Assembly: GCF_003334785.1 (NCBI RefSeq) | Contig: NZ_QOWV01000001.1 | Length of the DNA stretch: 64,000 nucleotides | Reading direction: 5' to 3' (one strand) | Source: Escherichia coli | Lineage (GTDB): Bacteria > Pseudomonadota > Gammaproteobacteria > Enterobacterales > Enterobacteriaceae | Shown here: in pieces, positions 10,452 through 22,052 of the stretch | How positions within the stretch are numbered: the first letter of the stretch is position 1 | Layout of the letters: the number at the start of each line of letters is the position of its first letter | Translations under genes and position numbers: made by a program | The notes under the pieces: generated by a model | Databases searched by the model: none | What the model was told of the DNA's origin: nothing | Seen by the model: only the letters and a program-made list of their open reading frames with translations

Positions 10452-10465
10452 AACAAAAAACCCAT
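10452..10465. repeat. attL core (direct repeat copy 1)
   Basis: AACAAAAAACCCAT is identical to 22039-22052. Confidence 0.8.
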
Positions 10466-10480
10466 TTATGTAAACGGGTT
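10452..10480 (-). terminator. Rho-independent terminator downstream of int, built from phage DNA plus the att core
   Basis: The minus strand reads AACCCGTTTA-CA-TAAATGGGTT followed by TTTTTTG. The stem (10459-10480) has one mismatch and the T-run lies within the att core. Confidence 0.6.
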
Positions 10481-10484
10481 AATG

Positions 10485-10521
10485 AAAACAATAAGTTAGG
10501 TTAAAAACAATAAGTTAGGTT
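10485..10521. repeat. Tandem direct repeat next to attL (candidate integrase arm-type sites)
   Basis: AAAACAATAAGTTAGGTT occurs at 10485-10502 and again at 10504-10521 (19-bp period). TGGTGGT-cag-TGGTGGT follows at 10521-10537. The repeat lies between the att core and the int stop. Confidence 0.5.
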
Positions 10522-10539
10522 GGTGGTCAGTGGTGGTTA

Positions 10540-11592
10540 TTACGGGGTAATGCCAACCGCTGCCGCCACTTTGTCGCCACTTGGCAGCGTTGCCAGAGGA
10601 TTGAAACGGAGCGCCGTTTCTAGATGATCCGGTGCCAGATGTGCGTAACGCATAGTCATTTTTATATCGTGGTGTCCGAGAATTTTTTGTAAGGCCAGAA
10701 TGTTTCCACCCGACATCATGAAGTGCGCCGCAAACGTATGGCGCAGAACGTGTGTGAGTTGACCGCGAGGGAGCACGATAGACGTTTTTTCCATCACGGA
10801 TAAAAATTGAAAATAGCAGTCTGTGAAGAAATTGAACCCATCAAGCGCCATGATCTCTTCGTAAAGCTCTTTACTGATAGGGATGCTTCTGTTTTTCTTC
10901 CCCTTCGTTCTGACAAAGGTAATTCGGTATTTGGTCACCTGTGAGCGGGTAAGATTTACGGCTTCACGCCAGCGTGCGCCTGTGCTTAAGCATATCTTAA
11001 CTACCAGTGCCAGAATTGGGTCCTGACGTTTGCAATCAGCCAGCAATTCAACAATCTGCTCATGGGTAAGCCATGCCATCTCTTTTTCTGCGATGGTGAA
11101 TTTTCGCATGTTCTCCAGTGGGTTCGGATACGACCATTCGCCCAGACGGGATAGTTCGCTAAAAACACTACTTAGATAGCTTTGCTCCAGGTTAATGGTG
11201 ACCGGGCTTGCTCCTTTCTTCCATTTCTCGCTGAAGTAGATCTCGCCTGTCAGGCGTTTATCTCGATAGTGGGCAAACATTTTAGAGGTGAGATCGGTTG
11301 CAAGAGGATTGCCCAGAGCGTCAACCATCAACAGCAATTTGTCATAGACATGCTGCCCAGCTGTCAGAGATTTACCATGTAGTTTGAACCATAGCTCAAC
11401 CACGTCTTTCAGTGTTCGACGATCCACTGATTCACCCAGCCAGGGCTTTGCTTCGGTTTCTTCCATCGTGTGGCGCTCAAAAGCCAGTGCTTCGCCTTTG
11501 GTGGCGAATTGTTTACGCACACGACGCCCACTTCGTCCGGCGGGGTAACATTCGCAAAGCCATTTCCCTGTGGTTAGTTTTCGTACTGCCAT
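10540..11592 (-). CDS. int: Tyrosine-recombinase integrase (P2/186 type)
   Basis: 350 aa starting MAVRKLTTGKWLCECYPAGRSGRRVRKQF.... The C-terminal catalytic region has TGARWREA, HVLRHTFAAH and GHHDIKMTMRYAHL (R-H-R-Y signature). It is adjacent to attL. Confidence 0.95.
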   Translation of the reverse strand: MAVRKLTTGKWLCECYPAGRSGRRVRKQFATKGEALAFERHTMEETEAKPWLGESVDRRTLKDVVELWFKLHGKSLTAGQHVYDKLLLMVDALGNPLATDLTSKMFAHYRDKRLTGEIYFSEKWKKGASPVTINLEQSYLSSVFSELSRLGEWSYPNPLENMRKFTIAEKEMAWLTHEQIVELLADCKRQDPILALVVKICLSTGARWREAVNLTRSQVTKYRITFVRTKGKKNRSIPISKELYEEIMALDGFNFFTDCYFQFLSVMEKTSIVLPRGQLTHVLRHTFAAHFMMSGGNILALQKILGHHDIKMTMRYAHLAPDHLETALRFNPLATLPSGDKVAAAVGITP

Positions 11593-11616
11593 AAAAAGCC
11601 CTCATATCAGAGGGCT
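11593..11616 (-). terminator. Hairpin plus T-run immediately upstream of the int start codon
   Basis: The minus strand reads AGCCCTC-TGATAT-GAGGGCT-TTTT-ATG(int). It is terminator-like, and its 3' arm GAGGG is also the only Shine-Dalgarno candidate for int. Confidence 0.55.
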
Positions 11617-11674
11617 AAATTTAACTGTATATGTAACCAGTAATCAATGTGTGATTACTATGAAACATACATTG

Positions 11675-19900: not shown

Positions 19901-20073
19901 TGCCGCCCGTTTACAGGATTGAGGCACCGACGCAGATCATCATCCAGACGCAGCCAGGACAAAGTGCGCAGGATATTGCGCGGGAGGTGGCCCGCCAGCT
20001 TGATGAACGTGAACGCAGGCTGAAGGCAAAGGCCAGGAGTAACTACAGCGATCAGGGGGGATACGACGCATGA
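16969..20073 (+). CDS. Chimeric ORF: N-terminal ~434 aa of replication initiator gpA fused in frame to C-terminal ~600 aa of tail tape-measure gpT
   Basis: The protein reads ...[11 protein letters not shown] | [45 protein letters not shown].... The A-like part stops just before where P2/186 gpA carries its HUH motif (EPHHDGTPHWH). The rest has tape-measure features: a hydrophobic segment, five xPLAxLRxGL repeats and a C-terminal Gly-rich region. The junction is near nt 18270/18271. Confidence 0.8.
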
Positions 20074-20555
20074 TGATGGTGCTGGGATTGTACGTGTTTA
20101 TGCTGCGCACCGTGCCGTATCAGGAACTGCAGTATCAGCGCAGCTGGCGACATGCGGCTAACAGCCGGGTAAATCGTCGTCCGTCCACGCAGTTTCTGGG
20201 ACCGGACAACGACATGCTGACGCTTTCCGGTGTTCTTATGCCGGAGATAACAGGCGGCAGGCTGTCGTTGCTGGCACTGGAGCAGATGGCAGAACAGGGG
20301 AAAGCATGGCCTCTGATTGAAGGCAGCGGCACGATTTACGGCATGTATGTGATTGAGGGACTGAATCAGACTAAAACGGAGTTTTTCCGCGACGGTATGC
20401 CGCGCCGGATTGAGTTCACCCTGTCGCTCAAACGGGTGGATGAATCCCTGTCCGATATGTTCGGTGATCTCAGTGCGCAGCTGAATAATCTGCAGGGAAC
20501 GGCAACATCAGCCTTAAGCGATATCAGTAAAACGGTGGGAGGGCTTCTGTCGTGA
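20070..20555 (+). CDS. U: P2 gpU-like tail protein
   Basis: 161 aa. [28 protein letters not shown]...[23 protein letters not shown] is recognised as gpU. Its start overlaps the upstream stop (ATGA). Confidence 0.85.
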
Positions 20556-21652
20556 ATTTCAGCTCTGAACTGCTTAACAAAGGCAACAAAACTCCGGCAT
20601 TCAGCATCAGTATTGAAGGCAGGGATATCACCACTGTGCTGGACAACCGCCTGATGGGGCTGACGCTGACGGATAACCGGGGATTTGAAGCGGATCAGCT
20701 TGATCTGGAGCTGGACGACGCCGATGGAAAAATCGTGCTGCCGCGCCGTGGTGCGGTCATTACGCTGGCGCTGGGCTGGAAGGGGCAGCCGCTTTTCCCG
20801 AAAGGGGCATTCACGGTGGACGAGATTGAACACACTGGCGCACCGGACCGCCTGACTATCCGGGCGCGAAGTGCTGATTTTCGGGAAACCCTGAATACCC
20901 GCCGTGAAAAATCTTGGCACAAGACCACCGTCGGGGAAGTGGTAAAGGAAATAGCCGCGCGTCACAAGCTGAAGATGGCGCTGGGTAAAGACCTGTCGGA
21001 TAAGCCCGTGGAACATATAGACCAGACTAATGAGAGTGACGGCAGTTTTCTGATGCGGCTGGCGCGACAGTACGGTGCCATCGCGTCGGTGAAAAATGGC
21101 AATCTGCTATTCATCCGGCAGGGGCAGGGCAAAAGCGCCAGTGGTAAACCACTGCCAGTGATCACTATCACACGCAAGGACGGCGACAGTCACCGCTTTA
21201 CCCTGGCAGATCGCGGAGCCTACACGGGCGTAATTGCCAGCTGGTTGCATACCCGCGAACCTGCGAAGAAAGAAAGCACCACGGTGAAGCGTAAGCGCAG
21301 AACTAAGAAGCAGAAGAAAGAGCCAGAAGCGAAGCAGGGCGATTACCTGGTGGGTACGGATGAAAACGTGCTGGTACTTAATCGCACTTATGCCAACCGG
21401 AGCAACGCCGAACGAGCGGCGAAAATGCAGTGGGAACGCCTGCAACGCGGCGTTGCGTCATTCTCGCTACAACTGGCAGAAGGGCGGGCAGATCTCTACA
21501 CGGAAATGCCAGTGAAAGTCAGTGGCTTTAAACAGCCGATAGATGATGCGGAATGGACCATTACGACTCTGACGCATACCGTCAGCCCGGATAACGGTTT
21601 TACGACCAGTCTGGAGCTTGAAGTGAGGATTGATGATTTCGAAATGGAATGA
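20552..21652 (+). CDS. D: P2 gpD-like late control/tail protein
   Basis: 366 aa with a GTG start overlapping the gpU stop (GTGA). The gene order U-D-ogr is as in P2. Confidence 0.85.
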   Translation: MNFSSELLNKGNKTPAFSISIEGRDITTVLDNRLMGLTLTDNRGFEADQLDLELDDADGKIVLPRRGAVITLALGWKGQPLFPKGAFTVDEIEHTGAPDRLTIRARSADFRETLNTRREKSWHKTTVGEVVKEIAARHKLKMALGKDLSDKPVEHIDQTNESDGSFLMRLARQYGAIASVKNGNLLFIRQGQGKSASGKPLPVITITRKDGDSHRFTLADRGAYTGVIASWLHTREPAKKESTTVKRKRRTKKQKKEPEAKQGDYLVGTDENVLVLNRTYANRSNAERAAKMQWERLQRGVASFSLQLAEGRADLYTEMPVKVSGFKQPIDDAEWTITTLTHTVSPDNGFTTSLELEVRIDDFEME

Positions 21653-21742
21653 TTCTTCGCAATGGAGAACTTTTAAGTTTGCAAAATGGAATAATGCGGT
21701 ATCATTATTGTGAATTTAGCAAAAATGGGGAGAACTCGAAAA

Positions 21743-21961
21743 ATGATGATTTGCCCACTGTGTGGAAGTGCCGCCCATACTCGCAGCAGTTTTCAGGTAT
21801 CTTCATTGACCAAAGAGCGTTACAACCAGTGCCAGAACATTAACTGCAGCCATACTTTTGTTACCCATGAAACTTTTGTTCGTTCGATTGCAACGCCAAA
21901 AGAGTCAAATCCGGTTCAGCCGCATCCAATGAAATCAGGACAGGTGGCGCTCTCTCTTTGA
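21743..21961 (+). CDS. ogr: Ogr-type zinc-finger late-gene transcription activator
   Basis: 72 aa from ATG 21743. MMICPLCGSAAHTRSS...KERYNQCQNINCSHTF carries the CxxC-N22-CxxxxC pattern and the length of P2 Ogr. Confidence 0.88.
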   Translation: MMICPLCGSAAHTRSSFQVSSLTKERYNQCQNINCSHTFVTHETFVRSIATPKESNPVQPHPMKSGQVALSL

Positions 21962-22038
21962 CGCTGCCGCCATTTTGTCGCCATCGTTAAAAAACAGTGT
22001 TTCTAACATCATGATTTTAAACAGCTTAAATTTCAGGC

Positions 22039-22052
22039 AACAAAAAACCCAT
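22039..22052. repeat. attR core (direct repeat copy 2), overlapping the rybB 3' end
   Basis: AACAAAAAACCCAT is identical to 10452-10465. Positions 22042-22052 are the last 11 nt of RybB. Confidence 0.8.

Follow-up and report, generated by a model that had tools for sequence, protein, structure and literature searches.

P2-like prophages at the small RNA (sRNA) gene rybB are already known from reports of 2011, 2014 and 2023 (PMC3032704, PMC4048246, PMC10121019). Archer et al. (2011) described P2-type prophages at the "rybB ncRNA" in E. coli W, B and Crooks (Rybb*W, Rybb*B and Rybb*Cr; PMC3032704). Of these, Rybb*B carries the retron Ec86, and the same paper lists a P2 remnant of K-12, ogr-D', at the sRNA gene cyaR (PMC3032704, Table 2). 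In Klebsiella, a Fels-2-like prophage lies precisely within rybB as the Kpn38RybB island of K. pneumoniae (Hudson et al., PMC4048246). Finally, only Felsduovirus prophages were found integrated in rybB at hotspot #29 of Hochhauser et al. (2023), which was occupied in 109 of more than 1,300 genomes with at most two defence systems per prophage (PMC10121019). For rybB these authors cite Bobay et al. (2013); the name was not found in the main text of that paper (PMC3603311) and presumably stands in its supplement or in a figure. Here we analyse a stretch of 64,000 nucleotides (nt) of E. coli DNA (assembly GCF_003334785.1, contig NZ_QOWV01000001.1; hereafter the window), in which an 11.6-kb element occupies the same gene. 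We consider it very nearly certain that this element originated as a P2-like prophage of the Elveevirus type, which integrated at the 3' end of rybB and was later crippled by one deletion of ~23.5 kb.

Integration at the 3' end of rybB

The element is bounded by a 14-bp direct repeat, AACAAAAAACCCAT, which is present in exactly two copies in the window (10452-10465 and 22039-22052) and for which no copy is expected in a dinucleotide-preserving shuffled window. The homology between the two ends runs on imperfectly for 12 nt to the left of the 14-mer, with 22 of 26 positions identical (left end extended to 10440). The right copy forms the 3' end of rybB. Indeed, the Rfam model of RybB (RF00110) matched over its entire length (positions 1-79 of 79; 105.3 bits relative to a gathering score of 40), and the repeat corresponds to model positions 66-79, that is, to five nucleotides of the terminator stem (AUGGG) followed by the U tail UUUUUUGUU. 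A sequence-only reading of this DNA, made without database searches, had placed the boundaries of the block at this repeat and had assigned the last 11 nt of the RybB terminator to its right copy. Both statements stand: the copy covers 14 model positions, or 11 nt if the RNA ends after U6, and the geometry is the same.

The empty site could be rebuilt from the window itself. Joining 10100-10465 to 22053-22400 yielded a 714-bp sequence with 100% identity to K-12 MG1655, C600 and numerous further strains. This confirms, at the repeat boundaries, the earlier claim that rcdA and rybB are neighbours in K-12; rcdA and ybjL flank the uninterrupted site in all these strains. Local alignment of the whole window to the 40-kb MG1655 locus produced two collinear blocks with the 11.6-kb insert as the sole interruption. 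The flanks are 99.99% (window 1-10465) and 99.97% (22027-42400) identical to MG1655, which corresponds to one substitution in 10.5 kb on the left and seven in 20.4 kb on the right. The strain is thus extremely closely related to K-12, yet it carries a prophage remnant.

In Klebsiella phage KP12, the attP site consists of a single core between ogr and int, which is flanked by the left arm of the window's attR and the right arm of its attL. The four sites are related as expected when attB recombines with attP to yield attL and attR. The locus presents the properties of attachment sites in tRNA genes: end repeats of which one forms the 3' end of an RNA gene, an empty site that can be rebuilt, an attP with the core, and an adjacent tyrosine integrase gene (int, 10540-11592 by Pfam, 75 bp from the att core). 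Downstream of int, a terminator-like hairpin combines a phage-encoded 5' half with the att core, so that the 3' half of the int terminator appears to mimic the 3' half of the RybB terminator. Because a copy of the core is supplied by the phage itself, RybB would have been rebuilt intact at attR and the int terminator kept at attL. The rybB gene is full length and, judging from its sequence, was not disrupted by the insertion.

Two further repeats were detected near the attachment sites. Between the core and the int stop codon, an 18-nt unit, AAAACAATAAGTTAGGTT, is perfectly duplicated in tandem with a period of 19; only the first 14 nt of this unit recur in the stretch of the KP12 attP that was examined. 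This duplication could represent a duplicated protein-binding site, for IHF or Int, or it could result from replication slippage. In addition, one copy of a 22-nt repeat, CGCTGCCGCCAYTTTGTCGCCA, falls within the 3' end of int (10558-10579) and the other directly follows ogr (21962-21983), with 21 of 22 positions identical. By analogy with P2, we regard these two copies as candidate arm-type Int sites.

A deletion from gene A to gene T

The left arm of the element (window 10452-18270) is 99.9% identical, without gaps, to two prophages at the same site, CPE35 and vB_EcoM-813R9 (813R9), both of which possess an intact 2.4-kb A gene; the arm differs from prophages with intact A at only 8 of 7,819 nt. 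The right arm (18271-22052) aligns to KP12 at 96.6% identity, over the 3' 1.8 kb of T and then U, D, ogr and the attP arm. At the base level, A is broken between GGCGTGCGGGTG and GCTGAGCCGCATCAT and T between AAAGCAGATG and ACGAAGGATG; the two sites share TG alone. The missing segment corresponds to positions 7571-31029 of a KP12-based reference (~23.5 kb), and the in-frame fusion of what remains of the two genes, A' and 'T, creates a single open reading frame (ORF) of 1034 amino acids (aa) at 16969-20073. A single deletion of ~23.5 kb appears to have produced this fusion. Since fuller prophages match the left arm at 99.9% identity, the deletion would be recent, leaving little time for decay.

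Gene by gene, relative to KP12, CPE35 and 813R9, the lost segment comprised the 3'-terminal 46% of A, the small genes that follow it, among them a DinI-like (Tum-like) gene, a cargo hotspot between A and Q, and cos, followed by Q, P, O, N, M, L, the lysis genes, R, S, V, W, J, I, H, G, the sheath and tube genes and the 5' part of T. The A-Q cargo hotspot has been described by Rousset et al. (PMC9122126). In the alignment to P2 gpA, A' ends at residue 434, directly before the HUH motif EPHHDGTVHWH. The annotated ori nick of P2 (P2 position 29892) maps to about residue 675 of the 804-aa gpA of this lineage, in the deleted part. An SOS antirepressor of the Tum/DinI type was not found in the window; in CPE35 and 813R9 the corresponding gene follows A, in the region that is deleted here. 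From what is known of phage 186, this DinI-like gene would play the role of a Tum-type antirepressor.

Since it lacks a replication initiator, an origin, a packaging site, capsid genes, lysis genes and most tail genes, the element is incapable of replication, packaging and lysis, and it is presumably non-inducible. A complete virion, lysis and packaging module with cos is lacking, and the element is a defective remnant, not a functional P2-like phage. The sequence-only reading had proposed that everything from inside A to inside T was missing, with cos, the capsid, lysis and most tail genes, and the comparison with KP12 bears this out. Its description as a non-inducible remnant is justified by the lost replication, packaging and lysis genes, non-inducibility being a prediction from these losses. 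The same reading considered the immunity and early module intact-looking; indeed, all ten ORFs of the left arm are intact.

Genes kept in the element

The genes were identified with Pfam, PADLOC, precomputed Pfam annotations of an identical public contig and PGAP annotations of near-identical loci, which all agree (Table 1). Their order is int, X, cI and, on the opposite strand, apl, cII, fil, DUF5347, DUF2732, zinc finger, dam, A'/'T, U, D, ogr. This is the P2/186 prophage order that had been read from the sequence, with gpA, gpU, gpD and Ogr of the P2 type as in P2-like phages (Peduoviridae). The switch is of the 186 type based on Pfam: CI is divergent from apl-cII, and Fil and Dam are encoded downstream. 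A rightward sigma-70-like promoter (TTGACA-17-TAGTAT, 13962-13990) was detected in the gap between cI and apl, and an operator-like palindrome, GTACCCAATTGGGTAC, adjoins it (13998-14013), an arrangement compatible with a switch of this type. The apl/cox-like ORF (14064-14285) had no match among the precomputed Pfam annotations of the identical contig. Approximately 245 bp around fil (15004-15249) are present in the window, CPE35 and 813R9 and absent from KP12 and from another prophage at this site, EC05. The fil gene itself measures 297 bp in the former three and 201 bp in the latter two, which constitutes a small mosaic difference of the early operon.

SNIPE is a membrane-anchored nuclease that cuts phage DNA during injection (Nature 2026, PMC13190303). 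Gene X, located between int and cI, matched the PD-Lambda-1 models of PADLOC with E=2.4e-120. Its translation presents an N-terminal transmembrane (TM) helix, followed by DUF4041 and a GIY-YIG/T5orf172 nuclease domain. A membrane anchor, DUF4041 and a GIY-YIG-type nuclease in a single protein constitute the SNIPE/PD-lambda-1 architecture, and PGAP names the gene 'SNIPE associated domain' in a near-identical locus. Based on these domains, gene X appears to be a homologue of the PD-lambda-1/SNIPE membrane nuclease, and it is likely an active SNIPE defence gene.

Table 1. Features of the element and of its immediate flanks, with window coordinates, strand and basis of the assignment
Feature	Coordinates	Strand	Basis
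rcdA, host, left flank	9899..10435	+	PGAP annotation of locus L001 (99.9% identical), coordinates transferred by offset
attL core, left copy of 14-bp repeat	10452..10465	.	repeat search, comparison with KP12 attP
terminator-like hairpin and T tract downstream of int (AACCCGTTTACATAAATGGGTT TTTTGTT)	10459..10480	-	phage-encoded 5' half and att core
perfect tandem duplication, 18-nt unit, period 19	10485..10521	.	repeat search
int, tyrosine integrase, 350 aa	10540..11592	-	Pfam Int_N and Phage_integrase
candidate arm-type Int site, P' arm, CGCTGCCGCCACTTTGTCGCCA, within 3' end of int	10558..10579	.	analogy with P2 P' arm annotation
terminator-like hairpin between SNIPE gene and int	11597..11616	-	hairpin search
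gene X, SNIPE/PD-lambda-1 homologue, 558 aa	11675..13351	-	PADLOC PD-Lambda-1; Pfam DUF4041, T5orf172, MUG113
cI repressor, 186 type, 198 aa	13372..13968	-	Pfam Phage_CI_repr (PF07022) and Phage_CI_C (PF16452)
switch region, predicted	13962..14015	+	promoter-like site and operator-like palindrome
apl/cox-like excisionase-repressor, 73 aa	14064..14285	+	position and annotation in L001, 813R9 (L004) and Cartapus
cII, CP76 family	14318..14827	+	Pfam PF06892
fil, 186 Fil family	14835..15131	+	Pfam PF10893 on identical contig; PGAP
DUF5347 protein, at gpB position	15249..15590	+	Pfam PF17282
DUF2732 protein, P2 Orf80-like	15658..15891	+	PGAP, precomputed Pfam
TraR/DksA-type zinc-finger protein	15891..16118	+	PGAP, precomputed Pfam
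dam, orphan N6-adenine methyltransferase	16115..16972	+	Pfam MethyltransfD12 (PF02086); PADLOC orphan MTase 1.6e-110
A', first 434 codons of replication endonuclease gpA	16969..18270	+	Pfam Phage_GPA profile positions 1-244 of 321
deletion junction, 2 bp microhomology (TG)	18269..18270	.	base-level comparison
'T, last 600 codons of tail tape-measure gene	18271..20073	+	alignment to KP12 gene T
U, tail protein	20070..20555	+	Pfam Phage_P2_GpU
D, late control/baseplate hub	20552..21652	+	Pfam Phage_GPD
ogr, late-gene activator, zinc finger	21743..21961	+	Pfam Ogr_Delta; PGAP coordinates
candidate arm-type Int site, P arm, CGCTGCCGCCATTTTGTCGCCA	21962..21983	.	21/22 identical to 10558-10579
attR core, right copy = 3' end of rybB	22039..22052	.	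repeat search, Rfam, KP12 attP
rybB sRNA gene, complete	22039..22117	-	Rfam RF00110
ybjL, host, right flank	22197..23882	-	ORF list, annotation of relatives and MG1655

Relatives and taxonomic placement

The best phage match was KP12, which covers 98% of the element at 96% identity; Escherichia phage Cartapus, Klebsiella phage 4LV2017 and the 813R9 record were also among the best. Kp4880-1 gave the same DNA match as 4LV2017 in the nucleotide search. The element is collinear with Peduoviridae phage and prophage genomes at 96-99.9% nucleotide identity, and both of its arms are 96-97% identical to KP12. P2 and 186 were not among the 25 best of 60 megablast matches. The integrase is 100% identical to that of 813R9, 99.4% identical to that of Kp4880-1 and, with these two included, at least 99% identical to those of 15 phage records in our collection. 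Its identity decreases to 52-56% with P2-like integrases of Yersinia, Salmonella and Aeromonas and to ~39% with P2-type Int (e.g., NC_041848, 'Escherichia phage P2'). Cartapus is classified in the Peduoviridae, genus Elveevirus, which we take to be named after 4LV2017. These results place the insert among the prophages of the Peduoviridae (P2-like), with an immunity region of the 186 type and with nearest relatives of the Elveevirus type (4LV2017, Cartapus and KP12). The earlier label "P2/186 family" is right for the family and the type of switch, with the refinement that the element is not close to P2 or 186 themselves. Hochhauser et al. use the name Felsduovirus for prophages at the rybB site (PMC10121019).

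One record among these matches requires caution. ON470620.1 (L004), labelled 'Escherichia phage vB_EcoM-813R9', is a predicted prophage, and ~13 kb of the record are E. coli chromosome, from rcdA to yliI on one side and from ybjT to artP on the opposite side. The record does not represent a free phage and is unsuitable for use as a phage genome.

Occupancy of the rybB site and decay of its prophages

We surveyed 5,426 complete E. coli genomes for the state of the site. The rcdA-int junction (attL) was found in 1123 of them and the ogr-rybB junction (attR) in 1105, and the uninterrupted site was found in 4294. The site is occupied in ~21% of the genomes, essentially always by a prophage with this integrase type, and the block, absent from the other ~79% including K-12, is not core DNA, as had been supposed from its sequence.

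Prophages at this site were found in various states of decay. CPE35 presents an O-to-T deletion with A, Q and P kept. EC05 has experienced two deletions, from A to lysC and from V to T, and contains IS5 and a SIR2 gene. Two deletions are also found in EC596, from A' (1632 bp) to lysB and from G/H to D, and its int is a pseudogene. The tail-fibre gene H of 813R9 is deleted into host ybjT, and in EC-07 A' is joined to D. The A-to-T deletion of the window is one more of several independent decay states at rybB.

Additional cargo was observed between S and V: IS5/ISKpn26 and the SIR2 gene in EC05 (L002, 11358-13204), and a gene pair encoding an AAA ATPase and a DUF4435 protein in EC596 (L009, 10636-12736) and 813R9 (L004, 8786-10889). 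The gene content of these loci suggests that, in addition to int-cI and A-Q, phages of this group may have a third position of variable cargo at S-V.

Origin of the element and alternative explanations

We propose that an Elveevirus-like phage with a 186-type cI/apl/cII switch integrated through tyrosine-integrase recombination between its attP and the 14-bp core at the 3' end of rybB. At a later time, an illegitimate deletion at a 2-bp microhomology would have joined codon 434 of A to the last 600 codons of T. This event would have removed the HUH and tyrosine catalytic domain of gpA, ori, the DinI-like gene and the A-Q defence hotspot, together with cos, all head and lysis genes and most of the tail genes. 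The structural account (boundaries, att relations, gene content, junction and presence in other assemblies) is uncontradicted. The cI, SNIPE nuclease and int genes are still encoded on the leftward strand. If cI and the SNIPE gene are expressed, as we presume, the element may confer on its host immunity to related phages through cI and a SNIPE-type defence against incoming phage DNA, and int and apl may provide a residual ability to excise. One point weighs against such an account of a module that still serves the cell: the intactness of the left-arm ORFs seems to be no sign of selection, since the arm is 99.9% identical to fuller prophages.

The junction itself might be questioned, as it was found in 0 of the 5,426 complete genomes and a full-length prophage collapsed across a repeat during assembly could be mistaken for a deletion. 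The exact 1034-aa fusion protein is encoded, however, on 13 public draft-assembly contigs in the same gene context, including NCBI GCA_012211965.1 and Logan SRR3825895, which represent different assemblies and assemblers; one GenBank contig (L006) is 100% identical to the window across 23 kb. An identical fusion ORF on 13 independent contigs indicates that the deletion is real, and it is fixed in a narrow lineage. The junction also contains no repeat, only 2 bp being shared, and rybB harbours many further prophages shortened by deletions of independent origin, so that we rejected an assembly artefact and leave it next to no probability. A P4-like satellite or another phage-inducible island (PICI), as opposed to a degraded helper-type phage, would fit the small size of 11.6 kb, the integrase, the activator of the ogr/delta family and the defence gene. 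We rejected this explanation as well, and consider it extremely improbable, based on gene content and collinearity: both arms are collinear with full-length P2-like genomes at 96-99.9%, they stop within A and T, both of which are truncated by the junction, and no P4 genes (alpha primase, sid, psu, cos) were found in the Pfam results. Alternatively, selection for cI immunity and SNIPE might have preserved the element as a domesticated defence island whose structural genes were purged, instead of a passively decaying prophage. The intactness of the ten left-arm ORFs, the position of SNIPE next to cI on the leftward strand, the same deletion fixed on 13 contigs and the several independent rybB remnants that keep the int-to-dam module and lose late genes would all be expected in this case. 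However, so few differences from prophages with intact A point to recency rather than purifying selection as the source of that intactness, the useless pieces A'-'T, U, D and ogr have been kept too, and the absence of the junction from complete genomes indicates a narrow lineage. We regard domestication as rather unlikely, though deserving of some weight, and prefer a prophage that one recent deletion has crippled.

The position of the break in A raises a separate question. The A gene of EC05 (L002, NZ_CM169495.1, 9716-9725) is broken at precisely the base where that of the window is broken (...GCGGGTG), but it is joined there to lysB/C (ACGCCG...). The arms of the two elements are 3.2-4.5% diverged up to the junction, the window holds 240 bp of T that EC05 lacks, and, as each possesses DNA that the other lacks, recent common ancestry of the two remnants was rejected. 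The shared breakpoint is probably a coincidence aided by local microhomology, given GCGGGTG in A, GCGAGTG in lysB/C and GCAGATG in T. It is also conceivable that base 18270 (gpA codon 434) is a preferred endpoint of deletions that remove the cos-proximal half of the prophage, which would explain why prophages 3-4% diverged present the same A break with different partners. This base lies in a Chi-like octamer, GCGGGTGG (18264-18271), which spans the break, matches Chi at 7 of 8 positions and is oriented for RecBCD arriving from the cos side. A double-strand break at or near cos might then be followed by RecBCD resection, stalling at the Chi-like site and microhomology joining. Nothing Chi-like was found at the T end, and no exact Chi was found in the reference phage; with the 7-of-8 octamer at the A end only, Chi-directed endpoints stay speculation. 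A widespread deletion hotspot at 18270 was rejected: the A segment is intact across the break site in 1222 of the 1263 genomes that carry it, the EC05 junction was found in EC05 alone, and the A'-lysB deletion of EC596 is independent. The gpA ori nick was likewise rejected as the cause of the shared break, as it maps near residue 675 and the break lies at residue 434. We therefore consider a preferred endpoint very doubtful. A two-step origin, in which an EC05-like A-lysB/C deletion created TGACG and a second deletion used its 5-bp microhomology with TGACG in T, would account for the identical base at which both elements break A and for right partners that both start with ACG; moreover, it offers 5 bp of homology to T (TGACG) as compared to 2 bp (TG) in one step. 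However, the divergence of the arms indicates that the two elements are not recent relatives, the 240 bp of T are absent from EC05, and an intermediate between the EC05-type and window junctions was not found among the genomes searched. We judge a two-step origin quite improbable and retain a single deletion whose endpoint in A probably coincides with that of EC05 by chance.

The history that we favour explains the 11.6-kb difference from K-12 in a chromosome that is otherwise 99.97-99.99% identical, and the predicted SNIPE gene and 186-type repressor would affect the phage susceptibility of the lineage. The locus constitutes a further example of sRNA 3' ends used as phage attachment sites in the manner of tRNA genes, and of P2-like prophages at rybB that decay by many independent deletions, often keeping the lysogeny and defence module. 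Its value is chiefly one of annotation, with the recurrent breakpoint as a minor puzzle.

Other features of the host region

Rfam detected two REP-derived small RNAs in the DNA that lies to the right of the element, ES036 (CssrF) at 33793-33835 and naRNA4 (CssrE) at 34815-34895. A single match to the CRISPR-DR4 repeat of Rfam (50 bits) adjoins a tRNA gene (window 59816-59843 and 59950-60034) and is probably the known orphan remnant of a type I-F-like CRISPR near clpA-infA-serW in E. coli.

Comparison with known systems

The prophages Rybb*W, Rybb*B and Rybb*Cr and those of hotspot #29 share with the element the rybB site, the phage family, the rcdA/ybjL flanks and the presence of defence cargo. 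The element differs from them by its own ~23.5-kb A-to-T deletion and by its SNIPE cargo at the int-cI position. The ogr-D' remnant of K-12 is likewise a P2-family prophage at an sRNA gene, cut down to an attR-side fragment with ogr and part of D; in contrast to the element, which keeps the whole lysogeny and early module, it lacks int and the immunity region.

Among phages, KP12 resembles the element in the int-SNIPE-cI arrangement and in its attP with the 14-bp core. KP12, 4LV2017 and Cartapus are full-length genomes of ~33-37 kb, unlike the 11.6-kb element, and Cartapus also differs in its integrase and cargo. Coliphages 186 and P2 present the same prophage gene order, with CI, CII (CP76), Fil and Dam of the 186 type and gpA, gpU, gpD and Ogr of the P2 type. 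An arm-type repeat overlaps the 3' end of int in P2, as does the candidate site in the window. The att sites of these two phages differ from those of the element: P2 integrates at locI and 186 in a tRNA-Ile gene.

Finally, gene X has the TM helix, DUF4041 and GIY-YIG nuclease architecture in common with SNIPE (PMC13190303). Relative to the PD-lambda-1 profile of PADLOC, which comprises ~490-500 positions, the 558-aa protein is aligned only from residue 106, and its N-terminal ~105 residues, with the TM helix and the start of a coiled coil, fall outside the match.

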